A program made the position numbers and the translations under genes. The notes under the pieces are model-generated. The model had not been told where the DNA came from, did no database searches, and saw nothing but the letters and a program-made list of their open reading frames with translations. A stretch of 31,827 bases of DNA from Promethearchaeota archaeon (GTDB lineage: Archaea > Asgardarchaeota > Lokiarchaeia > Sigyniarchaeales > SOKP01): positions 1-31,827 of the forward strand of contig JBHLMQ010000036.1 of NCBI GenBank assembly GCA_048938005.1, in the 5' to 3' direction. Numbering within the stretch: position 1 is the first letter of the stretch; each line of letters starts with the position of its first letter. This document shows positions 2,801 through 31,827 of the stretch, in pieces.

Positions 2801-4456
2801 ATGACTGAATATGATAAAATTGAACAAGATAAGAAAGAATGGGAGAACTCTATTTCACTTAAAAAAGAAAGAAAACAAAGTTTTAGGAATTTATCTGAAA
2901 TAGAAATTAAGAGATTATATGCCCCCAATGATATTAAAGATTTAAATTATGCACTTGATTTAGGATTTCCGGGACAATACCCCTTTACTCGAGGAGCATA
3001 TCCAAATATGTATAGAGGACAGCTGTGGACAATGCGCCAATTCGCAGGATTTGGGAATGCAGAACAAACTAATAAACGATATAAATTCTTAATCGACCAT
3101 GGTAATACAGGGTTAAGTGTAGCTTTTAGTTTGCATACTATTTACGGAATTGAAGCGACAGATACAAGAGCTTTAGGAGAGATTGGAAAAGAGGGAGTTG
3201 CGATTGATAGTTTAGAAGATATGGAGACTTTATTTGATGGCATTGATCTTTCAAAAATAAGTACTTCTATGACTATCAATGGCCCCGCTTCAATTTTATT
3301 AGCATTATATATTGTGACCGCTGAAAAACAAGGTCATACACCAGATCTGTTGAGAGGCACTATACAGAATGATATTTTAAAAGAATATATTGCCCAAAAA
3401 TCTTGGATTTTTCCTCCTGAACCCTCAATGCGAATAATAATTGATACTATAGAATATTGTACAAAATATGTACCTCAATGGTATACAATTAGTATCAGTG
3501 GCTATCATATTAGAGAAGCAGGATCAACAGCAGTTCAAGAATTAGCCTTCACTTTGGCAGACGGTTTTGCTTATGTAGAAGCTGCGCTAGAGAGAGGGTT
3601 GGATATCGATGATTTTGCGCCTCGCTTATCTTTTTTCTTTAATTCTCATAATAACTTTTTTGAAGAAGTTTGCAAATATCGTGCTGCTAGGCGTATATGG
3701 GCGAGGCATATGAAAAATAGATATGGTGCAAAAAAACCTGAATCAATGCGATTGAGATTTCATACACAAACAGCAGGTGTCTCGTTGGCAGCTCAAGAAC
3801 CAGAAAATAATATTGCTAGAGTAACAATGCAAGCACTTGCTTCTGTTCTGGGAGGAACACAATCTTTACACACAAATTCATTTGATGAAGCTTTATGCCT
3901 TCCAACAGAGAATGCTGTAAAAATCGCTTTAAGAACGCAACAAATAATTGCCCACGAATCAGGCGTCACTGATACAGTAGATCCACTAGCAGGGTCATAT
4001 TATGTTGAATGGCTTACAAATAAAATGGAAGAAGAAGCAGAAAATTATTTTCAAAGGATTGAAGATCTTGGCGGAGTGGTTCCGGCGATAAAAGCTAATT
4101 TCTTTCAAAAAGAAATAGCTAATGCATCTTATAAGTATCAACGAGAAATCGAGAATAGAGAGAGAACCATTGTAGCTGTAAATCAATTCGAACAAAGAGA
4201 GCCGTGTACTGTTCCGCTTCTAAAAATAGATGAAGAAGTTGCGAGAGAACAAATAAAAAAGGTAAATAGATTGAAGGAAGAGCGAGATAATGAAAGAGTG
4301 AAGGAAAAACTAGAAAAGTTAAAGGAAGCAGCGAGAGGAACAGAAAATTTGATGCCATTTATTATTGATGCTGTAAGAGAGTATGCCACTATTGGAGAAA
4401 TTATAAATGCCTTGAAAGAAGTGTTTGGAACTTATCATGAAGATTCAATCTTTTAA
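2801..4456 (+). CDS. AdoCbl-dependent acyl-CoA mutase large subunit (methylmalonyl-CoA mutase family; isobutyryl-CoA mutase-like active site)
   Basis: Motifs PGQYPFTRG, WTMRQFAGFG, GTIQNDILKEY, ISISGYHIREAG and GGTQSLHTNSFDEA. GAGGA RBS upstream. Confidence 0.95.
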   Translation: MTEYDKIEQDKKEWENSISLKKERKQSFRNLSEIEIKRLYAPNDIKDLNYALDLGFPGQYPFTRGAYPNMYRGQLWTMRQFAGFGNAEQTNKRYKFLIDHGNTGLSVAFSLHTIYGIEATDTRALGEIGKEGVAIDSLEDMETLFDGIDLSKISTSMTINGPASILLALYIVTAEKQGHTPDLLRGTIQNDILKEYIAQKSWIFPPEPSMRIIIDTIEYCTKYVPQWYTISISGYHIREAGSTAVQELAFTLADGFAYVEAALERGLDIDDFAPRLSFFFNSHNNFFEEVCKYRAARRIWARHMKNRYGAKKPESMRLRFHTQTAGVSLAAQEPENNIARVTMQALASVLGGTQSLHTNSFDEALCLPTENAVKIALRTQQIIAHESGVTDTVDPLAGSYYVEWLTNKMEEEAENYFQRIEDLGGVVPAIKANFFQKEIANASYKYQREIENRERTIVAVNQFEQREPCTVPLLKIDEEVAREQIKKVNRLKEERDNERVKEKLEKLKEAARGTENLMPFIIDAVREYATIGEIINALKEVFGTYHEDSIF

Positions 4457-4469
4457 GAAGTGATATCAA

Positions 4470-4871
4470 ATGTCAGTAGAAAAAAAAATAAAAGTTCTTG
4501 TCTGTAAACCAGGATTAGATGGTCATGATAGAGGAGCAAAAGTTCTCGCAAGAGCTTTAAGAGATGCTGGAATGGAAGTAATTTATACAGGAATACACCA
4601 AACTCCAGATGACGTTGTAAATACCGTAATTCAAGAAGATCCTGATGCTGTTATGTTGAGTATGTTATCTGGAGCTCATAATGCACTTTGTCCACTAATC
4701 ATGGAAAAACTAAAAGAACATGGCATTGACGATGTTCTAGTGGCTGTAGGAGGGATAATTCCAGACGAAGATAAACCATTTTTAGAAAAACATGGATTAA
4801 AAGGATTTCACGGTCCTGGTACTGATCTAAAAACAATTGTTGAATTTGTTAAAAACAACTTGAAAAGATAA
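4470..4871 (+). CDS. Acyl-CoA mutase small, cobalamin-binding subunit
   Basis: DxHxxG motif (GLDGHDRG), SMLSGAH and GGIIP; lies directly downstream of the large subunit. Confidence 0.95.
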   Translation: MSVEKKIKVLVCKPGLDGHDRGAKVLARALRDAGMEVIYTGIHQTPDDVVNTVIQEDPDAVMLSMLSGAHNALCPLIMEKLKEHGIDDVLVAVGGIIPDEDKPFLEKHGLKGFHGPGTDLKTIVEFVKNNLKR

Positions 4872-4878
4872 TAATAGA

Positions 4879-5871
4879 ATGGATTATTCTAATTATATTT
4901 CTCAATTACTAGAAGGCAGTCCGCGAGCTGTAGCACGACTAATTACTTTTGTTGAGAATGATATAGAAGCTGCTGAAGAGATAGTCAATTCTATTTATAA
5001 ACATACCGGCAAATCATATATTCTAGGCATTACAGGAGCGCCAGGAACTGGTAAATCCACGTTTATTTCAACTTTGACTAAATTCTATGTTGACCAAGGT
5101 AAAAAAGTAGGAATTATTTGCGTTGATCCAACGTCTCCTTTAACTGGTGGCGCTCTCTTAGGGGATAGAATCCGGATGAAACAAAATTTCTCACTTAATA
5201 ACGTTTTTATTAGAAGCATGGCAAATAGGGGTCAGCTTGGAGGGCTGGCGAGAGCAACGGAGGATGTAATAAAAATTCTTGATGCGTATGGGTGTGATGT
5301 TATAATTGTTGAGACTGTTGGTGTTGGGCAATCTGAAGTTGATATCTTTAAATCCGCGCAAACAGTTGTAGTTTTATTAGTACCAGGATTAGGAGATGAT
5401 ATTCAGGCAATAAAATCAGGTATCATGGAAATTACCGATATTTTTGTTGTAAACAAAATGGATTTACAAGGAGCAGATAAGAAGATTGCTGAAATAAAAC
5501 AAATGCTAGAATTTAGGAAAAATTATAAATATGATTCAAAAGATTTTAGCGAAAAATATGCAAAAATAGAACTATGGAACCCAGAAATTACAAAAGTAAA
5601 CTCAAAAACCGGTGAAAATTTCGTAGAACTTCTTAAGTTAATAGAAAAACATAGATTATTTTTAGAAGAATCAGGAGTCATTTCGAATTATCTGAAAAAT
5701 AGAATAACAAATGAGACTATTCAAATATTAAAACATAAATTGACAGAAAAAGTGGAAGAATTGCTAAGCTCTAATAAAGAAATTGGAAAATATATTGATC
5801 AAGCCATTAAAAAGTCTATAGATCCCTATTCAATGGCAAATTTAATAATTAAGATATTGGGTTTAGAGTAA
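4879..5871 (+). CDS. meaB: Mutase-associated G3E GTPase chaperone MeaB/ArgK
   Basis: Walker A GAPGTGKS, VDPTSP, GGALLGDRIRM, VETVGVGQSE and NKMD. Confidence 0.95.
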   Translation: MDYSNYISQLLEGSPRAVARLITFVENDIEAAEEIVNSIYKHTGKSYILGITGAPGTGKSTFISTLTKFYVDQGKKVGIICVDPTSPLTGGALLGDRIRMKQNFSLNNVFIRSMANRGQLGGLARATEDVIKILDAYGCDVIIVETVGVGQSEVDIFKSAQTVVVLLVPGLGDDIQAIKSGIMEITDIFVVNKMDLQGADKKIAEIKQMLEFRKNYKYDSKDFSEKYAKIELWNPEITKVNSKTGENFVELLKLIEKHRLFLEESGVISNYLKNRITNETIQILKHKLTEKVEELLSSNKEIGKYIDQAIKKSIDPYSMANLIIKILGLE

Positions 5872-5919
5872 TAAATGAGCATTTACTATCTGTTTTATGA
5901 ATAAAATAGTAGATTTATT

Positions 5920-6813
5920 ATGAAGAATCATTCAATAATTGAAAAGTTAGGTTATGAAGCTACAGATAAAGTAGTCATTTTTCATATCGATGATATAGGT
6001 TTTTCACATGCTTCAAATTTAGCTGCCTTCGAATGTTTAGATTTCGGGGTTGCTAGTTGTGGCTCCATAATTACTCCTGCTCCTTGGTTTTTAGAAGTAG
6101 CATCAATTTATAAAAATAATCCGAAATATGATCTGGGAGTTCATCTAACTCTCACGTGTGAATATGATCTCTACAGATGGAGAGCATTGAGCACTGTTGA
6201 TCCTAAAACAGGATTATTGGACTCAGAGAATTCTCTATGGCGTACAACAGAAGAAGCAATTATTAATGTAACTACTGAAGCAGCTGAAATTGAATTACGT
6301 TCTCAAATTCAATTAGCTCTAGATAATGGAATAGATGTAACTCATATTGATTCACACATGGAAACTGTAGCGAATCCAAAATTTATTAGATCCTATTTAA
6401 AACTTGCTCAAGAATTCGAGATTCCTGGATTCTTTCCAAGAGTAACTAGACAAGAACTAATCGATAGGGGATTAGAAGATTATATAAAATTATATGAAAA
6501 AATGTTATCAACAATCGAAGCAAGAGGTTTTCCTCTTATTGATCACATGATAACTCATACAGGTGGTGAGCAAGTGGATAAAATAGATTATTATTGTAAG
6601 CTTTTTGCAGAAATAAAACCGGGACTTACACACTTTTTATTTCACCCTGCTAAGATGAGTCCTGAATTAATTGCTATTACTCCAGAATCAGCAACTTGGA
6701 GGAATCAAGATTATGAGGCCTTCATAGATTCACAAATTAAAGCGTGTGTTGAAGCACAAGACATAAAAGTAATTGGTTATAGAACACTTCGCGATTTTTT
6801 TAGAGGTTATTAA
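5920..6813 (+). CDS. YdjC/ChbG-family carbohydrate deacetylase
   Basis: Metal and catalytic motifs HIDDIG, GVHLTL, THIDSHM and FHP. Confidence 0.88.
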   Translation: MKNHSIIEKLGYEATDKVVIFHIDDIGFSHASNLAAFECLDFGVASCGSIITPAPWFLEVASIYKNNPKYDLGVHLTLTCEYDLYRWRALSTVDPKTGLLDSENSLWRTTEEAIINVTTEAAEIELRSQIQLALDNGIDVTHIDSHMETVANPKFIRSYLKLAQEFEIPGFFPRVTRQELIDRGLEDYIKLYEKMLSTIEARGFPLIDHMITHTGGEQVDKIDYYCKLFAEIKPGLTHFLFHPAKMSPELIAITPESATWRNQDYEAFIDSQIKACVEAQDIKVIGYRTLRDFFRGY

Positions 6814-7212: not shown

Positions 7213-8988
7213 TTATACTTCCTTATGTTTTTTTTCTTGTTCTTCAACTTTCTGTTTTTTCTCTTCCTTATATGGTGTACTAGGTTTTAATTCATCAATT
7301 GATGCATTACACGCCCAACACACGTTTTCCAAATCGGTTATCGCTCGCGCACAGTTTCCACAATAAATCGCACCACATTCACAAATGTACGAATATTTTA
7401 ACACTTCTCCTCTACATATAAGGCAAACTTTTTTCTCTTTATGAATTGAAACTTTCTCTTCACTTACTTGGGCAGCTAAAATTGCACGATTCTGAAACAT
7501 ATTTCCAATTTGCTCATCCATACGGGATAACTCTATACGTTCAGCCATTGGGGCATTTTCTTCCTTTAATCTTTCCCATAATTCTAATTTATTTAGTAGT
7601 TCATCATGCTCATTTTCAATTTTCTTAGTTAATTTATTAAGATCAAATCTAATGGATATTTGCTTAGCTTGCATTAAAAATCGTTGAGCTTCCGTTATAT
7701 CTATGGTAATTAATGATAATTTACTTTTTAAAAGATAGGTTTCTGTTAATAACAAATGTGATTCTGTTGTTTCAGCAATATTCAATAATTTATTAATAAG
7801 GGGTTTTAACTCTTCTATTACTTCTGGGTTATTTAATATCCGCAGTTCAAATAATAATAAATCACAAAGATTTATTAAAGCTGTAAAAGTAACCTCACCT
7901 AAGATAATCTCTTCATCAATAATTACTTCAAGTAATTCTTGGGCTTTAGCCAGTTTTTGTATTCGAGTACTCATTTTCAGTACTAAAGCTTCACATAAAC
8001 GAGTATATGATTGAGACCATTTGAATCTATTTTGTTCATTGAATTGTTTTAACATTTCAAAGTATTTCTGTGCATTATCTTGATCTTTTTTTTCAACATA
8101 CAGGCAAATAATTGAACTAAGAGCACTTCCAATATTCCATTTATTTCGAATTTCTTCAGCAATTGTCAAAGCTTTCTTTAGATATTCTAAAGCTTGTTCT
8201 ATTTCACCTTTCTGTTGATATATACCTCCAATATTATTATAAAGAGTTGAAATTTGTCTTTTGTTTTTTAATTCTCTTGACATTGTAAGACTTTGCTTAT
8301 AATTCATAAGACCAAGTTCGATCTCACCTTTAAATGCATTTATCATTCCAAAAAGCATAAAATTATAAGCCATAATATGCTTTTGTTTAGTTTCCTCCGC
8401 TAATTGTTGACTTCGTTCTGTATATTCCTTAGCAATATCATATTCATATTTTAGTAGAGTATGAATTAATCCTAGACTTGTGAGAGATTCAGCAATTTCA
8501 GCTTTACTACCTAGTTCTTCTCTTACTGAAAGACTCCTTTCTGCATTTCTTATAGCTTGATCAGAATCACTTTTGAAAAAATAATAAAAGCTTTTAATAT
8601 AGTTTATAGAAGCTTGTTTTTGCCGTATTACATTTGAAGTTTCTTCATTATATTTATTGAGAATATTTTCACCTTTTTCAAGTAGATCCAAAGCTTTATC
8701 TAATGATATTTGCCATACTGAAGCATAAACCATAGAAAGAAGTGCATCTACTGATTGGAGATTATCACTTATTTCTTGGCTCTTTTGGTACGCTAGTTCT
8801 GCATATTTAAAGGCATCCTTATAACTTCCAATTTTATTTAGAATGTTACTTTTTAAAAGATTGGATGAAATTAGGTCATGGATCGTCAGGTTTTCATTTT
8901 CCTCAAAATTTTCAAGTAGGCGAAGAGCTTCATAGTATTTACCATCCTCATTTAACTGGTTTGCTTTTTTGAGTTCTTTATGATATAT
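7213..8988 (-). CDS. TPR-repeat protein with C-terminal C4C4 RING-like zinc finger
   Basis: About 40-aa TPR repeats (e.g. YNNIGGIYQQKGEIEQALEYLKKALTIAEE) and a C-terminal 8-Cys motif at 7309-7425. The ORF track starts at ATG 8733, but the frame stays open and TPR-like up to 9000. ATA at 8988 follows GAGGGAG. The start position is uncertain. Confidence 0.85.
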   Translation of the reverse strand: MYHKELKKANQLNEDGKYYEALRLLENFEENENLTIHDLISSNLLKSNILNKIGSYKDAFKYAELAYQKSQEISDNLQSVDALLSMVYASVWQISLDKALDLLEKGENILNKYNEETSNVIRQKQASINYIKSFYYFFKSDSDQAIRNAERSLSVREELGSKAEIAESLTSLGLIHTLLKYEYDIAKEYTERSQQLAEETKQKHIMAYNFMLFGMINAFKGEIELGLMNYKQSLTMSRELKNKRQISTLYNNIGGIYQQKGEIEQALEYLKKALTIAEEIRNKWNIGSALSSIICLYVEKKDQDNAQKYFEMLKQFNEQNRFKWSQSYTRLCEALVLKMSTRIQKLAKAQELLEVIIDEEIILGEVTFTALINLCDLLLFELRILNNPEVIEELKPLINKLLNIAETTESHLLLTETYLLKSKLSLITIDITEAQRFLMQAKQISIRFDLNKLTKKIENEHDELLNKLELWERLKEENAPMAERIELSRMDEQIGNMFQNRAILAAQVSEEKVSIHKEKKVCLICRGEVLKYSYICECGAIYCGNCARAITDLENVCWACNASIDELKPSTPYKEEKKQKVEEQEKKHKEV

Positions 8989-9256: not shown

Positions 9257-10066
9257 TTAATCTATTTCGTCTTTTTTCTTATGTTTCTTATGCTTTTTTT
9301 CTTTCGCCTTTTTTTCTTCAATCTCTTTTTCTTTGGTTATATCTTCCTCAACTATCGGTTCTTCAGTTGCGGGTTCTACTTCAGGTTCTGGTTCTGGAGG
9401 TTTAGGTTTTCGTGAAATTATCACTTTTGCATAGCGGATAACTTCTTTTCCATATTTGAAACCGTCTTGAACTACTTCTAATATACTATTTTCTTCAATA
9501 TCTTCTTTTTCAACAGTTGTTAATGCTTCATGTACACTATAATCAAATTGATCATTCACACTTACTTGTATTGGTTCAGCTCCAAATGATTTTAAAATGT
9601 TCATAAACTGATTATAGAAGCCTTTTAACACATTCTTCTCAGTATCATTAGCGCTGTCAAGAGCTTTTTTAAATGAATCATATAAAGGTAAGAAACTTTT
9701 TAAAACTGATGCTGTGTATTCAATTCTCAAGTTTTGTCGATTTTTATCCCATCTTTTTTGAGCATTTTCAAATTCAGCTTGAAGATGTATAAATTTTTTC
9801 TTAGAGTCAGCATTTTCTTTTTGTATTTTATCAAGATTTTCCTTTAGTTTAGCTAATTCTTTCTCCAGATTTTCTTTTTCTTTGACTAGATCTTCTTTCG
9901 AAAAATAATCTAACTCAAAATGCTCTTTTTCCTCTAATTTTTTAATTTTCTGAGACTCTGTTTTTGTTTCTGCATTTTCTTGGTCTTCTGTTGGAAATGT
10001 TTCTGTATCAACTGAAACCTCTGGTTTAGATTCTTCTTTTAATTTATCATTGTTATCATCAGTCAT
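9257..10066 (-). CDS. grpE: Nucleotide exchange factor GrpE with long charged N- and C-terminal extensions
   Basis: LQAEFENAQKR, FLPLYDSF, FDYSVHEA and VVQDGFKYGKEVIRYAKV; GAGGT RBS; adjacent to dnaK. Confidence 0.93.
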   Translation of the reverse strand: MTDDNNDKLKEESKPEVSVDTETFPTEDQENAETKTESQKIKKLEEKEHFELDYFSKEDLVKEKENLEKELAKLKENLDKIQKENADSKKKFIHLQAEFENAQKRWDKNRQNLRIEYTASVLKSFLPLYDSFKKALDSANDTEKNVLKGFYNQFMNILKSFGAEPIQVSVNDQFDYSVHEALTTVEKEDIEENSILEVVQDGFKYGKEVIRYAKVIISRKPKPPEPEPEVEPATEEPIVEEDITKEKEIEEKKAKEKKHKKHKKKDEID

Positions 10067-16152: not shown

Positions 16153-17019
16153 ATGAAAAGAACAGCTACCAATTTAATGATAGGTTTTATAAAAGAATCT
16201 CAAACAAGAATTCGATATGAAATTTTCGCAGAAATCGCAAGAAAAGAGAAACTTACATTAATCTTTAGAATTTTTAAAGATTTCGCTAATCAAAAAAGAG
16301 AAGTTGCTAATTGGTGTTATAAAACATTACAACAATTAAAAAAGGATGAGTTATTTGAAGATTTAACTGTAGAAATTGAGAGCCCAACTACTTATGGAAC
16401 AACAATACAAAATTTAGAATCTTCTATAAAAGAAGAAGATAAACAATGGCAAGATTTATACCCCAATTTCGTAAGTATTGCTAAAATAGAAGGATATCAA
16501 AAAATTGCTAAAGTTTTAAAAGAAATTATTCAAACTAAAAGAAATCAATCTCAGAGATTAAAGATGTTCTTAAATTTAGTTAAAAGTAATGCGTTTTTTA
16601 AAAGAAACATGATTCCTTACTGGAAATGTTTAGCGTGTGGATATGAGGTTGCGATGGATGAGTTGCCTAATGATTTTAATTGTCCTTCTTGTGGGCATTT
16701 TAAGTCATATTTTCAAAGAAAGATTTTACAGTTAATGCCAGACGAAAAATCTCTAGAACAAAAAGATATCTCTGGGTGGGTTTGCATGGAATGTGGATAT
16801 GAAGTTGCCTTAGAGGAATTACCTGAGGACTGGAAATGTTTTTCCTGTGGTCGCTCTAAAGCTTACTTTAAACGAAAAATTTTAAAACCAGAAAACTATA
16901 TAATTAAGCCTACAGTAATAGAAAAAGCTCATTGGGTATGTTTACAATGTGGAAATGAAGAAGAAATAGATATGCCGGTTGGATGGAAATGTCCTAAATG
17001 TGGATTTCCCAATGAGTAG
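16153..17019 (+). CDS. Rubrerythrin-like protein with degenerate di-iron site and three rubredoxin-like domains
   Basis: N-terminal rubrerythrin pattern (TATNL..F..ESQ.R.RY..FA..A.KE; T.QNL; W..LYP.F..IA..EGY) followed by three W-x-CxxCG...CxxCG units. Confidence 0.88.
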   Translation: MKRTATNLMIGFIKESQTRIRYEIFAEIARKEKLTLIFRIFKDFANQKREVANWCYKTLQQLKKDELFEDLTVEIESPTTYGTTIQNLESSIKEEDKQWQDLYPNFVSIAKIEGYQKIAKVLKEIIQTKRNQSQRLKMFLNLVKSNAFFKRNMIPYWKCLACGYEVAMDELPNDFNCPSCGHFKSYFQRKILQLMPDEKSLEQKDISGWVCMECGYEVALEELPEDWKCFSCGRSKAYFKRKILKPENYIIKPTVIEKAHWVCLQCGNEEEIDMPVGWKCPKCGFPNE

Positions 17020-25205: not shown

Positions 25206-25337
25206 AATTTTTCACTTGATTATCGTTATCTTAAATCTTTTTTATAAAATTTTTATGTTAATATATTAAAAAGATATCACACAAAATTTCCTAAATCATT
25301 AAAACATTTTGAATTTAAGAGAAATTAATTTTCTATG

Positions 25338-25406
25338 AAAAAGTAAAACATTATAAATTGAGCTGACTGTTTATTAATCATCTTATTAGACGAATAAGGT
25401 CGAAAT
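25338..25406 (+). promoter_or_regulatory. Conserved upstream element, copy 1 (BRE/TATA plus downstream box)
   Basis: AAAAAGTAAAACATTATAAATTGAGCTGACTGTTTATTAATCAT...TATTAGACGAATAAGGTCGAAAT; repeated at 29330-29409. Confidence 0.7.
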
Positions 25407-25437
25407 TTAGTAAATATAAACCCAAGTTCGATAATAA

Positions 25438-28400
25438 ATGTCTTTATTGAATGAAAGTGGACTCAGCTTATTAGAAAAAGCTCGAGAACACAGAAAGGAA
25501 TATAACTGGTTGGAAGCAGTGAGGTTTTTTGATCAAGCTGTGGATTATTATATTGATAAAAAAGATCCAGAAAAAGTATTGGAGATTTGTGTGGAACTTT
25601 TCGTTTATGGTAATTTTTACTTCGCTACTGTTTCAACAACTAAACAACTTATAGCAGTTTTTAGTTTAGAACTTAAAATCTTTGAAAAATGCGAATCTTT
25701 CTATAAGCAGTTAGGGAAGAAAGCTGAAGAATTGGAATGCACAGCAATTAAATTGCTATTTAATATATCCAGCCAAATTCCTATAGTTGAAGCGGATAAA
25801 ATGATTGACAAATCAATTGAGATCTATAATAAACTAAATGAAATTTATAAGGAAGAAAAAAAAGAAGAAGTTATTGTTAGAATTGCGCTAGGGAAAATTG
25901 GGGCAATGCATATAAAAACAATGTTTGACCCTAATCCTCAAGAAATTAAAAATTTCTCTCAAAAATATATTGAACTTTTTGAAAAAGGATGGGAAATCTC
26001 AAGAGACATTAGAAATGTGAATTACTTAATTTATTTCTTATATTTTATGACATATTGGTTTATCAACAACCAATATGGATTTTTTTCTTATGATAAGCAT
26101 ATTCAAGCAAGAAGACATAGAGATCTAATAGTAAAATGTGAAGAAGCTTTAAGGATCATTGATGACACTAATTATGAGGATATATTATTCCTTGGAGTTT
26201 TACATAGTCTAATCGGTATTTTATACTCTGAATATGCTTTCAAAATTTGTGAGAATGACATAGAACAAAGAAAATATTTTGATAAAGGGATGAATTTTTT
26301 AGAGATTAGCTTAGATAATACAAGAAAGACAAAAGACAAAAATACTTTAATGTATGCAATTGGTGGATTGTCCAGGTATGCCTTGCTTAGCGGCAAGATA
26401 ATGTATCTCCAAAATAGAATTACTAAAGACCTTCAAGATAGTGAAAGAGCGGGAAAGATATTTGTGGAATACTTTGAACAAAAAAGTTCTTTAGGAATAA
26501 TTATTGCCGCGATTCTTTTTCAGCTATATTATTTACCAAGTTTATATTATTCTAATACTGCTCTGATGAGCTTTTTTACATCATTCCAAAGAATATCGTA
26601 TGCTAAGAAAGCGATTGATTATAGCTTAAAAAATCTAAAAATGATTCCTATATTGGATAAATATTCATATCTAGCTCTTACTGTTTCTTATGCAGTCTTA
26701 GCGAAGTTAACCTCATCAAAGGAGGAACAGAATCAGTATATCGAAAAAATGCTTAATTACGCAAAAGTAGCAAATAAATTAGGAGAAAAGTATGAAGGAG
26801 GACAGGTTCGGACATTTGGATATGGATCTTTATACAGAGCATATAAAACTATAGCAGACATCGCAGAAAATGAAGAAAAGAAAATTATAATGCTGACATC
26901 TGCAATAGATTCAGCAGAAAAATATATGGATTATGCAACGGAATCTCGGGCAGGTGTTATAGCAGCCCTAATGCGGTTAGGGCTTCTTTATGAAGAACTT
27001 GGTATTTTAACTAAAGATAATCATAAATTATTGAATTCAAAAGAAAAATTGCTTGAAGCAATTAGAGGTAGCTTGGAAAGAGGATATTATTCTTACGCAG
27101 GTACTACCTATGAGTATGTTGCGCGTATAGAGGATCGATTAGGAAATCATACAGCTTCAGCAGAATATTATCTAAATGTTCAAGAAAATCACGAGAAGTC
27201 ATTGGAAAGCATTGAATATAGGTTACTTAAAAAAAGAATTACAGAAAAGATAGATTATGCTCATGCCTGGAACCTGATTGAGAAAGCTAAAGCACATCAT
27301 AGAAATGAAAATCATTTAAAAGCAAAGGAAAGTTATGAAAAATCTAGTGAAATTTTACAAAAAATCCCAAGGTATTCTTTTGAAGGATCTTATAATGCCG
27401 CTTGGGCCTTATTAGAAGAAGCAGAACTATTAAGTAAACAGGAAAGACAAAAAGAAGCTATAAATCAGTATAAATTAACAATACAAGCTTTCGAAGAAGC
27501 TATAATAATACTTGAAAATGCATTAGAAAAAGCTGAAGGGCAACCCGAAAGGGAACGAATAGATAAACTTCAGAAGGTCGCAAAAGTAAGAATAAGTTAT
27601 TGTAACGCCAGAATTAATTTAGAAGAAGCTAGAATCTTAGGGAAAACGGGGGATCATTCAACAGCTTCAGAAAAATTTGCTATTGCAGCATCGGTTTTTA
27701 GAGGTGTCTGTACAAGATATAAGTTAGAAAGAGAAAGAAAGGAGCTTGAAGCAATATATTATCTTTGTCGAGCATGGGAGAGTATGGAACTTGCTGAAAA
27801 ATTTGAAGAACCAGAAAGGTTTGAATATTCTGCAAATCTATTTACAAAAGCTAGTAACCTCTTTATTGATACAAAATTAAAGTTATTAGCTTTAGGTAAT
27901 TCAGCATTTTGTCAAGCTCTTGAGTTGAGTTGTAAATTTGATCAATCAATGAATATTAGGATAAAAACAGAATTATATCCTAAAGTGAAGTTGATGCTAA
28001 GTAACGCAGCTTCCTCTTATGGCAAAAGCGGTTTTGAGAATGTAGCAGATTGGGCTTTAGCTACTTCGATCTATTTTGATGCTGCTTGGCACTTAATTCA
28101 AGCTGACAAAGAACTGGATATAAATGAAAAAGGAAGGTTATTGGGTATTGGATCAAATTATTTAAAGTCAGCTTTAGAATTATTTAATAAAGCGGGTTAT
28201 AAAAATAAAGTTGTTGAGGTTCAAGACAGATTAAACAGAGTAGAGAAGGAAGAATCCATTCTTTTTTCCGCTTTAAATACTATAAAAGAACCATCAATCT
28301 CTCGAAGTACTATAGGTATAGTTGCTCCTTCTTGCCCTATCGAAAGCAGCCAATCGCCCAGACTAGGGGAAGCTCGTCAGTTCACTGAGGAGGAACTTCG

Positions 28401-29304
28401 AGTTACCATGGAGAGAATGGAACGAAAAAAGTATGAACTTATTTATAAAGATTTGGTTAAAGAATATACTAAAGTTCAAAGAAGAGAATGCAGGGTTGGT
28501 ATTGCCCAAATAGGTGTATCCGAGTCTGGAGATATAATGGATGAACTTTATGAAATGAGTCCTTCAGGTCTGTTAAAAATAAAAGAAAATAGGATTGAAA
28601 AAACAATATCTCAAGTTAAAGTCATGATTGAAAAAGCGCACAATGAAGGAGTCAATATATTACTCTTTCCAGAAATGACTATTGATCTGAACTATGGGGA
28701 AGTTTTTAAAGAAATTGCAGATCAAGCTAAATTGTATGAGATGTATATTGTTCCAGGTTCTTTTCATGAAGCAGAAACGAAACGAAATATTAGTATGGTT
28801 TTTGGACCAGAGGGTATTCTTTGGGAACAAGAGAAACATATTCCCGCAACTATAAGCTTCGAGGCGGGAAAGCAATTCAAAGAGGGAATAGAAGTTAGCA
28901 GTTTACCTCGAAGAACAATTATTTGCAATACGGAATATGGAAGAATAGCTATTGCGATTTGTCGAGACTTTCTTGACATGGACTTAAGGGTAGAATTAAA
29001 AAATTCCGAGCCTCCTATAGATATAATTCTAAATCCCGCATTTACGCCAGTAACTGCAGATTTTAAAGCAGCCCATTTTGATGCCCGTCGATCCATTTAT
29101 GCCTATTCATTTTTTGCTAATATTGGAGAATATGGAGAATCCCTTATTTATACTCCAGAAAAAGACCGGACTGAACGAATTATCCCAGCAAAAGAAGAAG
29201 GATTGATTTTCAAAGATATAGATCTATTCAAGCTGCGTTCTGAACGTAAAAAGTGGGAAAAAGAACAGGGTAAAAAACGATTATTTATTCAAAGCACAAG
29301 ATAA
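25438..29304 (+). CDS. 1288-aa TPR-like alpha-solenoid protein with C-terminal carbon-nitrogen hydrolase (nitrilase) domain
   Basis: About 950 aa of helical repeats, a Ser/Pro linker, then RVGIAQ, LLFPE (Glu), QEKHIP (Lys) and IAICRD (Cys), i.e. a complete E-K-C triad. Confidence 0.9.
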   Translation: MSLLNESGLSLLEKAREHRKEYNWLEAVRFFDQAVDYYIDKKDPEKVLEICVELFVYGNFYFATVSTTKQLIAVFSLELKIFEKCESFYKQLGKKAEELECTAIKLLFNISSQIPIVEADKMIDKSIEIYNKLNEIYKEEKKEEVIVRIALGKIGAMHIKTMFDPNPQEIKNFSQKYIELFEKGWEISRDIRNVNYLIYFLYFMTYWFINNQYGFFSYDKHIQARRHRDLIVKCEEALRIIDDTNYEDILFLGVLHSLIGILYSEYAFKICENDIEQRKYFDKGMNFLEISLDNTRKTKDKNTLMYAIGGLSRYALLSGKIMYLQNRITKDLQDSERAGKIFVEYFEQKSSLGIIIAAILFQLYYLPSLYYSNTALMSFFTSFQRISYAKKAIDYSLKNLKMIPILDKYSYLALTVSYAVLAKLTSSKEEQNQYIEKMLNYAKVANKLGEKYEGGQVRTFGYGSLYRAYKTIADIAENEEKKIIMLTSAIDSAEKYMDYATESRAGVIAALMRLGLLYEELGILTKDNHKLLNSKEKLLEAIRGSLERGYYSYAGTTYEYVARIEDRLGNHTASAEYYLNVQENHEKSLESIEYRLLKKRITEKIDYAHAWNLIEKAKAHHRNENHLKAKESYEKSSEILQKIPRYSFEGSYNAAWALLEEAELLSKQERQKEAINQYKLTIQAFEEAIIILENALEKAEGQPERERIDKLQKVAKVRISYCNARINLEEARILGKTGDHSTASEKFAIAASVFRGVCTRYKLERERKELEAIYYLCRAWESMELAEKFEEPERFEYSANLFTKASNLFIDTKLKLLALGNSAFCQALELSCKFDQSMNIRIKTELYPKVKLMLSNAASSYGKSGFENVADWALATSIYFDAAWHLIQADKELDINEKGRLLGIGSNYLKSALELFNKAGYKNKVVEVQDRLNRVEKEESILFSALNTIKEPSISRSTIGIVAPSCPIESSQSPRLGEARQFTEEELRVTMERMERKKYELIYKDLVKEYTKVQRRECRVGIAQIGVSESGDIMDELYEMSPSGLLKIKENRIEKTISQVKVMIEKAHNEGVNILLFPEMTIDLNYGEVFKEIADQAKLYEMYIVPGSFHEAETKRNISMVFGPEGILWEQEKHIPATISFEAGKQFKEGIEVSSLPRRTIICNTEYGRIAIAICRDFLDMDLRVELKNSEPPIDIILNPAFTPVTADFKAAHFDARRSIYAYSFFANIGEYGESLIYTPEKDRTERIIPAKEEGLIFKDIDLFKLRSERKKWEKEQGKKRLFIQSTR

Positions 29305-29329
29305 GACTAGTGCGCTGACTATTTTTCTA

Positions 29330-29409
29330 AAAAAGTAAAATATTATAAATTGAACTAAATGTTTATTAATTATTCAAAGTAATTAATATTAGACAGTTAA
29401 GGTCGAAAT
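29330..29409 (+). promoter_or_regulatory. Conserved upstream element, copy 2
   Basis: AAAAAGTAAAATATTATAAATTGAACTAAATGTTTATTAATTAT...TATTAGACAGTTAAGGTCGAAAT; 39/44 identical to copy 1 in the first block. Confidence 0.7.
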
Positions 29410-29440
29410 AGAACACAAACAATTCTATAATTGATCCTAA

Positions 29441-31827
29441 ATGACTTTAGCGGAAACTGAAGAGTCACTATTAGATAAGGCAAGAGAGGAGGAAAGAAAG
29501 TACAATTGGATTGAAGCAACAGCGTTATATGAAAAAGTTGTCAAATTCTATTTAGAGAAAAATCTAGTTGAAAAAGCTGCTAATTGTTATAAAAATCTTG
29601 GATATGCTCACTTCAGAGGTGCTGATACGATAGAAACTGCGGAGGATTATTTGAAACAACTTAAGTGTGCTATTAAAGCGTACAAAGAGGCAAATAAGCT
29701 CTTTAAGCAACTTGGAAATAGATCTGTAGAGTTTGAGTGCGAAGCAGAAATATTTTCTATAAATGGGATTCTCGCAACTTCTGATGTGGAAGGTCAGAAG
29801 GCATTTCTTCATGTGATTAAACTTTTAAGTGAATCAAGTGAGATATATTCCAAAGAAGGTGATAAAGAGAGTTTTGCGAGAGTAATGTGCCGTATAGCGT
29901 CAACTTCGTATTTCCTCATGAACTATAACATTAATCAAGATGAATATAACCAAGTTATCCAACAAGGAAGTGAATGTGCTGATAAAGCTTGGGAGATTTC
30001 AGAAAAGATTGGAAATATTCAGCTTATGTCTGAGTCATTGAATATGAGACTTATGATTAGTTTTATGGGATGGTCAGTCAAAGATTTTAAAAAAAATGAA
30101 AATTTGAGGGAGGGAGCAAAGAATTTCTTGGTAGAAGGTAATAAAACTATTGCGATTATTGAAAAAGTAGATGATCCTTATGCCCTCAGTCTAGTTTATT
30201 CAGCAATAGGGATTTGTTATTGCTACACTGGATATCAATTCGTCGAAGATGAAAAAGAACAAGAGGAATACCTTGATAAGGGAATAGAATTACTAGAGAA
30301 ATCGTTAAATTTTTCCAGAAAAGCGAAAAGTAAATTTAACGTACTAGGAAGTTTGTTTTTCATAGATTACTTTGCACTTTTTAGTGGCAGAATCAATTAT
30401 CTCCAGAAGAGAATTCTTAATGACATCAAAGACTGTTTGGAATTAGGGAAGATTTATGCACATTCTTATAATTTTTATCGTTCTATGGGAAATATTATAC
30501 CTGCGCTTTATTATACTAATTCTTCACAGAGGAGTTTTTTTACTGCAGCACAACGCAAAATTTATGCTGAAAAAGGGCTCCAATATGTAAAGGAAGCAAT
30601 GAGTGTACCTAATTACCCCAGTATTACAGCATGGTTATACCAAGGTTTGATATTAGCTTACTCTCAACTTACAATTCTCGCAGAATCAAAAACAAAACAA
30701 GAAGAATATGCCCAAATTATGCTTCAACATGCAAAACAGGCAGAACAATTCGGTTTAAAATATGAAGGAGGATTTCCTCAGGCTGGTGGTTATACAAGTC
30801 TTTATAAGGCTTATAAAACACTTGCAGATATCGCTAAAGAGAAGGAAGAAAGGATCAAAAACCTTAAAAAGGCAATAAAAGCCCAAAAAAAATCAACCAG
30901 TTACGGTATATTATCTCGGTCTGGTGCCATTACGGAGCAAATGAGGTTAGGACTATTATATGAGGAATTAGGGATTATAACGGGAGAAGAAACTATTTTA
31001 AATCAAGCACGGGAAATTTTTCTCCACACAATAAAAGAGAGTGTTGATAGAAGATATTATTCTTATGAAGCGGCGAGTTATCAATATATAGCTCGTATAG
31101 AAGATCGATTGGGTAATTATATGGTTTCTGCAGAAAATTATAAGAAAGCTCAAGAAGCATATAATAAGTCGTTGAAAATGATAAAATACAAACTTCTAAA
31201 AAAGAGAATCAATGAGAAATTTAATTATGTGAGGGCTTGGAATTTAATAGAAGAAGCTAAATCGTTTCATGTTCGAGAAAATCACATAAAAGCTAAGGAA
31301 TTCTATAAGAAAGCTTATGACATACTAATAGAATTACCAAGTTTCGGTTATGAAGCATCTTATTATTCTGGATGGATATCATTGGAAGAAGCAGAAAAAC
31401 TAAGCAAACAAGAAGAGCACGAAAGAGCTATAGAAAGCTTTAAAAAGACAGGAAAAATCTTTGAAAAAGCAATTGGAACATTAATAAAATCCCATCAGAA
31501 ATCAAGAGAAAAATTTGAAAAAGAGAGAATAAATAAGTTTGAAAAAATAGCTCAAGTAAGAGTGAATCATTGTAATGCGAGAATAAACCTTGAAGAAGCA
31601 AGGATATTAGGAAAAGAAGGTGAACATATAGCAGCAGCAGAAAAATTTGCGCTAGCATCCTCTCAATTCAGAGATATATGTATTTTATTTAAAATTAAAC
31701 GAGAACGAGAGGAGTTAGAAGCGGTTTACTATCTGTGCAGAGCTTGGGAAAATATGGAACTTGCTGAAAAATATGAAGATCCTTACAGATTTTCCGAAGC
31801 AGCAGGATTGTTTGCAAAAGCAAGTGA
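29441..31827 (+). CDS. Tandem paralog of the 1288-aa solenoid protein, 3'-truncated by window edge (not in ORF track)
   Basis: ATG 29441, open for 795 codons to the window end. Starts MTLAETEESLLDKAREEERKYNWIEA. Shares KYEGG, AYKT.ADIA, MRLGLLYEELGI, ARIEDRLGN, AWNLIE, CNARINLEEARILGK and YYLCRAWE.MELAEK with the upstream gene. Confidence 0.92.
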   Translation, partial: MTLAETEESLLDKAREEERKYNWIEATALYEKVVKFYLEKNLVEKAANCYKNLGYAHFRGADTIETAEDYLKQLKCAIKAYKEANKLFKQLGNRSVEFECEAEIFSINGILATSDVEGQKAFLHVIKLLSESSEIYSKEGDKESFARVMCRIASTSYFLMNYNINQDEYNQVIQQGSECADKAWEISEKIGNIQLMSESLNMRLMISFMGWSVKDFKKNENLREGAKNFLVEGNKTIAIIEKVDDPYALSLVYSAIGICYCYTGYQFVEDEKEQEEYLDKGIELLEKSLNFSRKAKSKFNVLGSLFFIDYFALFSGRINYLQKRILNDIKDCLELGKIYAHSYNFYRSMGNIIPALYYTNSSQRSFFTAAQRKIYAEKGLQYVKEAMSVPNYPSITAWLYQGLILAYSQLTILAESKTKQEEYAQIMLQHAKQAEQFGLKYEGGFPQAGGYTSLYKAYKTLADIAKEKEERIKNLKKAIKAQKKSTSYGILSRSGAITEQMRLGLLYEELGIITGEETILNQAREIFLHTIKESVDRRYYSYEAASYQYIARIEDRLGNYMVSAENYKKAQEAYNKSLKMIKYKLLKKRINEKFNYVRAWNLIEEAKSFHVRENHIKAKEFYKKAYDILIELPSFGYEASYYSGWISLEEAEKLSKQEEHERAIESFKKTGKIFEKAIGTLIKSHQKSREKFEKERINKFEKIAQVRVNHCNARINLEEARILGKEGEHIAAAEKFALASSQFRDICILFKIKREREELEAVYYLCRAWENMELAEKYEDPYRFSEAAGLFAKAS

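Follow-up and report, generated by a model that had tools for sequence, protein, structure and literature searches.

A giant TPR-like solenoid joined to a nitrilase module in Asgard archaea: a candidate family of modular sensor-effector proteins

The protein described here, P0001, is encoded on the forward strand of a 31,827-nucleotide stretch of a Promethearchaeota archaeon contig (JBHLMQ010000036.1, assembly GCA_048938005.1), the whole of which is hereafter called the window. It consists of a TPR-like superhelix (residues 1 to about 940), a linker (941-981) and a nitrilase-superfamily domain (982-1288). It represents a real and, in the literature searched, undescribed Asgard family, in which a putative solenoid sensor is combined with an exchangeable enzymatic effector. 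We consider with moderate confidence that this family is a large one of NTPase-less, single-chain, modular sensor-effector proteins with a conflict or sentinel role. From comparison of sequences, a putative sensor-effector function appears to be the best-supported reading.

Architecture, conservation and catalytic residues

The arrangement of P0001 as a giant TPR-like solenoid, a linker and an intact nitrilase had already been read from the letters by a first-pass annotation, and the open reading frame (ORF), Pfam and the structural models all agree with it. In a model of residues 89-1288 (predicted local distance difference test, pLDDT, 73.6), the part up to about residue 940 forms 34 consecutive helices in a continuous TPR-like superhelix; residues 89-940 are modelled as helical hairpins throughout, without any Rossmann-like domain. 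The Pfam match of the N-terminal part to TPR_12 is sub-threshold (20.2 bits for a cut-off of 30.1). Foldseek with the solenoid model retrieves long TPR scaffolds, namely Ctr9, Ski3, an IFT-A subunit, separase, OGT and LGN (E 4e-9 to 1e-4), with TM values of only about 0.2 despite these significant E-values, and a search of the ESM Atlas with residues 1-960 gives just generic TPR clusters (scores of at most 0.85). Reverse transcriptase (RT), CARF, SIR2 and NTPase families are unmatched in P0001 by Pfam and PADLOC and, for NTPase, also by NCBIfam. The absence of an evident signal peptide, also remarked upon earlier, is supported, on hydropathy, by the lack of an N-terminal hydrophobic stretch. 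A transmembrane or secreted P0001 is rejected, as the only 19-residue windows with a Kyte-Doolittle value above 1.5 (249-267 and 350-370) lie within solenoid helices and none is N-terminal.

The C-terminal domain is recognised by Pfam CN_hydrolase (PF00795) over residues 1048-1268, with 27.5 bits for a cut-off of 23.2 (E 2.4e-6). When residues 985-1288 are modelled with 43 aligned sequences from the family and its outgroups, they are confidently predicted (pLDDT 93.5; predicted TM score, pTM, 0.91) to adopt the alpha-beta-beta-alpha sandwich of the nitrilase superfamily. The structural matches of this model are mouse Nit2, beta-ureidopropionase, the PH0642 amidase, NitFhit and AmiF (Foldseek, E 2.7e-16 to 1e-12, TMq 0.57-0.68), the top one being mouse Nit2 (2w1v; E 2.7e-16, TMq 0.68) at 17% identity. 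Sequence similarity to solved structures is marginal (best PDB phmmer match, E 0.0024), and a Foldseek comparison with viral models returns one cyanophage CN hydrolase and otherwise nothing.

The catalytic residues were followed in an alignment of 127 proteins of 1230-1300 amino acids. The codons of Glu1079, Lys1133 and Cys1175 had been placed exactly by the first-pass annotation, and all three residues are conserved in each of the 126 nitrilase-bearing rows; the odd row is P0164, which carries a phosphoesterase instead of a nitrilase. Glu1149, which lies 16 residues past the catalytic Lys and is equally conserved, is a candidate for the second Glu of the tetrad, on the strength of the spacing in Nit2. 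This degree of catalytic-residue conservation is far beyond chance, and Lys1133 is also the sole invariant column of the 43-row alignment that includes distant relatives. The domain ends in a FIQSTR tail, which is unstructured in the monomer model. An extreme C-terminus of the form [FVILM][IVL]QST[RK] is found in 274 of 283 family-type modules, and in 272 of these 274 it is terminal. At its other end the module is delimited by the homology with P0186, a TPR-nitrilase protein, which begins at residue 982 and amounts to 60% identity.

The linker (...SALNTIKEPSISRSTxGIVAPSCPIESSQSPRLGEARQ...) had been described as low-complexity. It is indeed predicted to be disordered (pLDDT below 50 over a stretch of about 939-975 in the model of residues 89-1288), but it is not junk: Ser944, Ala945, Ala963, Pro964 and Glu969 are invariant in 127/127 aligned homologues, so that a piece of predicted disorder is among the best-conserved of the protein.

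Conservation is unevenly distributed along P0001. In the 127-row alignment the majority-residue frequency is 0.43-0.60 over residues 1-450, about 0.7 over 451-750, about 0.8 over 751-950 and 0.74-0.90 in the nitrilase; over residues 451-940, hereafter the chassis, it is 0.67-0.81. Ratios of nonsynonymous to synonymous substitution rates (dN/dS) were obtained by the Nei-Gojobori method against the orthologues in two loci presented below, L001 (89% identity) and L002 (76% identity). Residues 1-450 give values of 0.34-0.57 against the former and 0.49-0.66 against the latter. Further along, dN/dS against L001 is 0.28 (451-600), 0.07-0.11 (601-940), 0.025 (linker) and 0.12 (nitrilase), and against L002 it is 0.13-0.18 (451-940) and 0.06-0.09 (941-1288). 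The N-terminal third evolves several-fold faster, and the remainder is under strong purifying selection. Synonymous divergence (dS) itself is mosaic. Against L002 it is 0.3-0.6 up to residue 940 and then rises to 1.1-1.4, and against a paralog, L001_A, it is 1.0-1.7 over residues 1-750 and 0.37-0.66 over 751-1288. A mosaic of this kind, whose break lies close to the linker, indicates that paralogs have recombined or undergone gene conversion and that the C-terminal module has been exchanged, in keeping with module swapping.

Within the nitrilase domain an antisense ORF of 110 amino acids is also present (window 28764-29096, minus strand). It is found at the equivalent position in every copy (L001 9324-9656 and 13321-13653, L002 13324-13656, all on the minus strand) and is most likely a by-product of strong sequence conservation, since dN/dS in the sense frame is about 0.1.

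The family is large, with more than 700 sequence clusters. At E<=0.001, 703 homologues of P0001 are found among 8000 scored candidates. The best 120 of these are nearly all 1260-1291 amino acids long and at least 50% identical, and the organism names given by the sources are, for these 120, all Asgard lineages (Promethearchaeota, Loki-, Thor-, Odin-, Hod- and Hermodarchaeota) or 'marine sediment metagenome'. A fragment retrieved with P0002, the paralog, as query bears the label Bathyarchaeota. The source databases name members 'nitrilase-related carbon-nitrogen hydrolase' or 'predicted amidohydrolase/TPR repeat protein'. A description of the solenoid-nitrilase family was not found in full-text literature searches, which did not cover supplements or orthologous-group tables; the published tables of Asgard orthologous groups (asCOG) may list it without comment. 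In an Asgard defence survey (PMC11291487) the terms TPR, tetratricopeptide, amidohydrolase and solenoid are absent, and the only nitrilase-related string is a system name in a list, 'RTnitrilase-Tm'. In a survey of archaeal immunity (PMC12988326), nitrilase, TPR and TIR are absent and the single 'tetratricopeptide' refers to a viperin-associated protein.

Exchange of the C-terminal module and the kind of nitrilase

In relatives of P0001 the linker is kept ahead of TIR, Metallophos, zinc-finger and other tails. A TIR_2 domain follows it in P0017, P0124, P0135, P0142 and P0160 (Pfam, 52.8-61.6 bits), and a calcineurin-like phosphoesterase does so in P0143, P0159 and P0164 (41-49 bits), in the truncated P0147 and, as assigned by precomputed Pfam and BLAST, in P0145 and P0152. 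The conserved Glu of TIR enzymes is retained in 5/5 TIR variants and the GNHD motif of phosphoesterases in 5/5 phosphoesterase variants. Six proteins bear a Cys-rich, zinc-finger-type tail with four Cys/His pairs. A tail of about 140 amino acids replaces the nitrilase in P0125 and P0127 and is appended after it in P0014; its nearest named ESM Atlas cluster is an Asgard 'Roadblock/LAMTOR2 domain-containing protein' (score 0.90), which we treat as a lead only. One further type of tail is found in P0140. Pfam, run at E<=5 on three alternative tails, gives nothing significant, the best match being the Rtf2 RING finger on the Cys-rich tail (E 0.055). In all, the 220 fetched proteins that contain the rear solenoid end in a nitrilase (190), a nitrilase plus an extra domain (1), a zinc-finger tail (6), Metallophos (6), TIR (5), the Roadblock-like tail (2) or another tail (1), or are cut off (9). 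This sample is biased toward the nitrilase because the queries carried it.

Conversely, nitrilase modules of the family type (55-73% identity) are also present in proteins that lack the solenoid. Their fusion partners are a Ras/Roc GTPase and a protein kinase in P0172, a kinase in P0165 and P0329, Ras/Roc in P0409, beta-helix/NosD with or without PKD in P0188, P0192 and P0193, AAA_16 in P0166 and, in many cases, MalT-like TPR arrays. From P0165 onward, 58 of 188 nitrilase-bearing proteins have more than 130 residues upstream of the module but no solenoid. These fusions suggest that the nitrilase module serves multidomain signalling proteins of Asgard archaea as a general output domain.

Two groups of more remote proteins with this type of domain may be mentioned here. 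P0198, P0202, P0204, P0205 and P0206 are Ala/Arg-rich proteins of about 530-590 amino acids, probably from high-GC organisms, that combine an alpha/beta hydrolase with a nitrilase sharing 40-47% identity with the Asgard module, down to a FIQSTR or VQSTR end. P0235, P0237, P0238, P0247, P0250, P0253 and P0254 are proteins of about 600 amino acids with two nitrilases in tandem, for which the RT-associated nitrilase profile gives strong matches of up to 187 bits. In the window itself, positions 7213-8733 (minus strand) encode a 506-residue TPR_12/MalT-like TPR protein which is 32% identical (E 2e-58) to the part preceding the nitrilase in P0186-type proteins. It is a relative, lacking the effector, of a second family linked to nitrilases, that of the TPR-nitrilase proteins.

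The profiles matched by the P0001 nitrilase are in the first place defence-associated ones. PADLOC gives 49.9 bits for RTasNitrilase, 40.9 for CARF_nitrilase and 33.9 for RT_UG5-nitrilase, all above the 27.5 bits of the generic Pfam family, and a weak match for Drt1a. These matches are confined to the nitrilase part of the models (model positions 637-879 of RT_UG5-nitrilase, 946-1139 of Drt1a and 201-392 of the CARF model). In a PADLOC-DB 2.0 scan of P0001 and P0002, no whole system is matched, only the nitrilase part, and the P0002 solenoid has no match. NCBIfam, which holds curated models of housekeeping nitrilase branches, gives no family for P0001 at E<=0.01. As controls, E. coli YafV and Lnt have no match to the PADLOC nitrilase profiles, nor are they detected at E<=1e-3 by a local hidden Markov model of the module. 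An exhaustive profile search of 1.84 billion representatives yields 315 matches at E<=0.001, in which complete family-type domains score above 200 bits and a sharp drop to about 70 follows. Matches to the PADLOC nitrilase profiles are also given by the outgroup relatives, which are the nearest ones outside the family (36/40 at E<=1e-5; 26/34 of a further set at E<=1e-3). Their other domains are HEAT (4), LRR (6), nSTAND3 with PUA (1), Aldolase_II (1), an alpha/beta hydrolase (1) or a second nitrilase (7), and only P0258 looks like a plain CN hydrolase.

A quick maximum-likelihood tree was built from 119 nitrilase domains, without bona fide DRT1 or UG5 reference sequences. The Asgard modules and the alpha/beta-hydrolase-fused ones form a single clade (SH-aLRT 98), within which solenoid-fused copies are interleaved with modules fused to kinase, Ras, beta-helix or TPR parts. 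A single clade of solenoid-fused copies is weakly rejected by the approximately unbiased test (p = 0.032), for a group picked after the tree was viewed. YafV and Lnt are long-branched outgroups.

The P0001 nitrilase thus appears, from profiles and tree, to belong to a radiation of fused 'output' nitrilases and not to a housekeeping branch. The first-pass annotation had suggested a likeness of the C-terminal end to RT-associated nitrilases and proposed that a phylogeny be made. The likeness holds in so far as the RT-associated profiles outscore Pfam, but it would be one of shared radiation rather than of family membership: the Asgard domains form a clade of their own, in a polytomy with the RT/CARF type, and P0001 has no RT domain. 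Likewise, the tree puts the domain outside the housekeeping branch but does not place it within an RT-associated clade. P0001 as a remnant of DRT1 that has lost its RT is rejected, since the helical region contains none and the family forms a conserved and coherent lineage of full-length proteins.

Tandem copies, upstream element and neighbourhood

P0001 is followed by a tandem paralog, P0002, of which the window contains solenoid only (Table 1). The closest full-length relative of P0002, P0022 (92% identical, 1277 amino acids), does have a CN_hydrolase domain. A contig search with a single protein query gave three further loci. In L001, a contig of a Hermodarchaeota metagenome-assembled genome, three consecutive copies follow the H+-pyrophosphatase gene, as the two copies of the window do; in L003 the end of one copy is followed by the start of the next (two copies); L002 contains the orthologue used above.

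A conserved element of about 100 bp lies upstream of 7/7 gene copies in four genomes (two in the window, three in L001, one each in L002 and L003), with 77% mean column identity and long invariant blocks. Outside the window it is found at 5885-6021, 9865-10000 and 13862-13998 of L001, 9865-10000 of L002 and 869-1004 of L003. It is far better conserved than the adjoining N-terminal coding region, in which paralogs share 30-44% amino acid identity. In the window its 25-nucleotide core occurs only at 25354-25378 and 29346-29370, with 0 occurrences expected. No consensus RNA structure, covariation or Rfam family was found for the element, and a scan for sigma-70 promoters and terminators does no better than on shuffled sequences and is not applicable to archaea. 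The element is probably a shared promoter plus an operator or 5' leader.

The other genes of the window, which has the look of ordinary chromosomal DNA, encode methylmalonyl-CoA mutase with MeaB, YdjC, GrpE, DnaK and DnaJ, an NTPase, a Band 7 protein, a rubrerythrin, a GlcD-like oxidase with HdrD-like subunits and the H+-pyrophosphatase, whose adjacency is kept in L001. No tRNA and no mobile-element gene is seen in the window, and no CRISPR locus is evident in its ORF annotation, no search aimed at CRISPR having been made. The rubrerythrin (16153-17019, plus strand; 288 amino acids) has an extra C-terminal zinc-ribbon-like stretch beyond its rubredoxin-like domain (weak matches, residues 256-285). 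In L002 the context consists of ABC transporters, a cupin, a HEAT protein, Roadblock and a Ras-family GTPase. The genes for the Ras-family small GTPase, Roadblock/LC7 and the HEAT-repeat protein (1006-1542, minus; 3334-3711, plus; 3770-5443, minus) lie within 9 kb upstream of the orthologue, and their products are of domain types that are fused elsewhere to the nitrilase or the solenoid.

Table 1. Positions of P0001, its parts and associated features in the window
Feature	Positions	Strand	Remarks
P0001, solenoid-linker-nitrilase ORF	25438..29304	+	ATG start, 1288 aa, no internal stop
Fast-evolving N-terminal third of the superhelix, residues 1-450	25438..26787	+	Candidate recognition surface
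Conserved C-terminal two-thirds of the superhelix (chassis), residues 451-940	26788..28257	+	
Conserved linker, predicted disordered, residues 941-981	28258..28380	+	Exchange junction for C-terminal modules
Nitrilase-superfamily module with FIQSTR tail, residues 982-1288	28381..29301	+	
Glu1079 codon (catalytic Glu 1)	28672..28674	+	GAA, LLFPEMT; 126/126 nitrilase-bearing rows
Lys1133 codon (catalytic Lys)	28834..28836	+	AAA, EQEKHIP; 126/126 nitrilase-bearing rows
Glu1149 codon (candidate second tetrad Glu)	28882..28884	+	126/126
Cys1175 codon (nucleophile)	28960..28962	+	TGT, AIAICRDF; 127/127 rows in column
Tandem paralog P0002, 3' open at window end	29441..31825	+	41% identity to P0001 over 812 columns
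Conserved upstream element, copy 1	25337..25437	+	Precedes P0001
Conserved upstream element, copy 2	29320..29440	+	Precedes P0002

Proposed mechanism, rival readings and known systems

A sensor-effector protein had been proposed for this gene from its letters alone. The proposal is now backed by comparison, through the module swaps at the linker, the fast N-terminal third and the tandem arrays, but the neighbourhood is a housekeeping one in all contexts seen. The mechanism could be as follows. The variable front of the superhelix would bind a protein or peptide ligand coming from a virus, from another invader or from a cellular stress, and binding would alter the assembly state of the conserved chassis, the rear solenoid and linker transmitting the change. 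The nitrilase domains would thereby be brought into an oligomer and be active only in that state, as suggested by the general dependence of nitrilases on oligomerisation and by the DRT1 precedent. The terminal tail could complete or gate the active site of a neighbouring subunit, in the manner of the DRT1 C-terminus; its conservation, its terminal position and its lack of structure in the monomer model suit such a lid-like role. The enzyme might then hydrolyse a C-N bond in an abundant essential metabolite (an amide or amine of nucleotide or NAD type) or in a protein, leading to growth arrest or to a signal. TIR-bearing relatives would reach the same outcome by cleaving NAD+. TIR domains self-associate, and TIR effectors are activated by multimerisation; activation of TIR and nitrilase alike by multimerisation would explain that they are interchangeable on one chassis.

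Several observations weigh against this sensor-effector reading. The dN/dS of the N-terminal third is raised yet below 1, and could also reflect relaxed constraint. Family members are at least about 50% identical across Asgard classes, which is unusually conserved for an immune protein, as are the enzyme (0.74-0.90) and the rear solenoid. No mark of a defence island is seen in the three contexts, the neighbours being housekeeping genes, and these contexts contain no conserved partner gene, P0001 itself having no NTPase. Roadblock-like and zinc-finger tails are atypical as toxic effectors, and fusion partners such as Ras GTPases and kinases would be just as much at home in cellular signalling. 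In the tree, the Asgard clade, the RT/CARF-type clade, an LRR/HEAT clade and the generic CN hydrolase P0258 form a polytomy. Finally, the nitrilase is poorly modelled and undocked in the model of residues 89-1288, which has no confident contact between solenoid, linker and nitrilase.

Several of these points (the housekeeping context, the strong conservation and the tails that do not look toxic) favour the main rival, a cellular, non-immune regulatory enzyme or scaffold, which is possible without being probable. The solenoid would scaffold endogenous client proteins or complexes, different ones for each paralog, and the nitrilase would be an amidase or deamidase directed at proteins or metabolites, as the output of the GTPase, kinase and Roadblock networks of Asgard archaea. 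The housekeeping and partly syntenic neighbourhoods, the strong purifying selection on enzyme, linker and rear solenoid, and the shared regulation implied by the upstream element all speak for it. So do the fusions of the same module to Ras/Roc GTPases and protein kinases, the Roadblock/LAMTOR-like tail in place of the nitrilase in P0125 and P0127 (the ESM Atlas lead above) and the eukaryotic assembly scaffolds that are the structural neighbours of the solenoid. It fits less well with the TIR and metallophosphoesterase swaps, tandem arrays, fast N-terminus and recombination at the junction, which together are the usual marks of conflict systems. Moreover, the closest relatives of this nitrilase fit profiles of defence-associated nitrilases and are joined to LRR, HEAT or STAND parts, and a conserved partner gene is not seen.

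The nitrilase could alternatively be mainly an oligomerisation core, C-terminal nitrilase and TIR modules merely multimerising a scaffold and catalysis being secondary. Nitrilase-superfamily proteins are obligate oligomers, TIR domains associate with themselves, the terminal tail is conserved, and the DRT1 nitrilase is a tetramer core (PMC13275509). This possibility is nonetheless unlikely in view of the four catalytic residues kept in 126/126 rows and of the Glu and GNHD motifs also retained by the TIR and phosphoesterase variants; besides, zinc-finger and Roadblock-like tails are not known as multimerisers of such a kind. An ordinary metabolic nitrilase or amidase for nitrogen scavenging, with a long N-terminal extension, would agree with the source annotations, with metabolic amidases such as Nit2 being the closest solved folds and with the interpretation of Heimdallarchaeial 'nitrilases' as nitrogen metabolism in PMC11193907. 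It is nevertheless very improbable: Pfam recognises the domain only marginally and NCBIfam gives no housekeeping model at E<=0.01, the module is exchanged for TIR or phosphoesterase and also joined to signalling domains, the neighbouring genes in the window include none for transport or nitrogen metabolism, and a conserved solenoid of about 940 residues would be left without a role.

The sensor-effector reading can be extended, tentatively, to a whole class of Asgard-specific, NTPase-independent intracellular receptors. The TPR superhelix plus a linear motif would be their universal chassis, carrying nitrilase, TIR, phosphoesterase, RING-like finger or Roadblock-like domain as outputs, and the nitrilase would be a general death, dormancy or signal output and the counterpart of TIR. 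It would also be wired to Ras-like GTPases, kinases, TPR and beta-helix sensors, and its C-N substrate would be an essential or signalling metabolite. In such receptors the linker would act as the switch, either as a peptide that docks in the TPR groove of a neighbour and so promotes assembly, or as a tripwire cleaved or bound by proteins of an invader.

Among known systems, nitrilase-bearing RTs are the first to be compared. In DRT1 (PMC13275509) the nitrilase is the core of a tetramer, a swapped C-terminal lid occludes or completes the pocket of the neighbouring subunit, the monomer is inactive and assembly is required, and the substrate of the nitrilase is unidentified; class 3 UG/Abi RTs carry a nitrilase or a phosphohydrolase. 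A nitrilase-bearing RT of the UG5/DRT11 type is described in PMC13436386. Like DRT1/UG1 and UG5/DRT11, P0001 is a large single chain in which alpha-helical repeats lead up to a C-terminal nitrilase whose catalytic set is complete, and like the class 3 RTs as a group, the Asgard family carries either a nitrilase or a metallophosphoesterase. The conserved C-terminal tail of the family has its parallel in the DRT1 lid, and a substrate is known for neither. Unlike DRT1 and UG5, P0001 has no RT and its helical part is TPR-like and about 940 residues long; the Asgard protein is archaeal and chromosomal, occurs in tandem arrays and has its nitrilase in a separate clade, which the tree does not resolve as part of the UG one (UG1/UG5/CL249/CL285). 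A comparable case is CARF-nitrilase (CARF_m7--CARF_nitrilase), a candidate ancillary effector of type III CRISPR, in which a nitrilase from this broad radiation is likewise joined to a sensor and whose function is, as far as literature searches show, also uncharacterised; in P0001 the sensor is a TPR superhelix and not a CARF domain.

The likeness to DSR2 is one of working principle; a sequence relation to it did not turn up, no direct comparison having been made. According to PMC11850899, DSR2 combines an effector with an alpha-solenoid sensor that is activated by a phage protein, the effectors clustering at the centre of the oligomer. As in that system, the Asgard protein is an NTPase-less single chain of at least about 1000 residues with an enzymatic effector and a long alpha-solenoid. 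The effector of DSR2 is however an N-terminal SIR2 NADase, absent from P0001, and its solenoid is HEAT-like and C-terminal. Furthermore, DSR2 captures a phage protein and oligomerises, steps that are only proposed for the Asgard protein. Receptors of the STAND/NLR-like type (Avs and related) share with the family a repeat sensor and exchangeable effectors that include TIR, and nSTAND3 or AAA_16 is fused to some relatives of this nitrilase. In contrast to them, P0001 has no P-loop NTPase, its effector is C-terminal and its most conserved part is the repeat region. Lastly, Nit2/omega-amidase and other metabolic amidases have the same fold and catalytic residues, but similarity to them in sequence is marginal, and they differ from P0001 in the giant solenoid fusion and in the shuffling of the module among signalling proteins.

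The discovery that nitrilase domains serve as effectors in anti-phage systems of bacteria (DRT1, DRT11) is a recent one. A nitrilase of the same type appears to be the dominant output of a large and conserved receptor-like family in the closest archaeal relatives of eukaryotes. If the sensor-effector reading is true, this family would be a major and previously unlisted component of the Asgard immune or signalling repertoire. It would also offer a simple NTPase-free model of a repeat sensor that controls an oligomerising enzyme, with many natural variants in which to look for the nitrilase substrate. If P0001 is instead a cellular regulator, the family would still represent a novel kind of enzyme-linked scaffold, peculiar to the cell biology of Asgard archaea.

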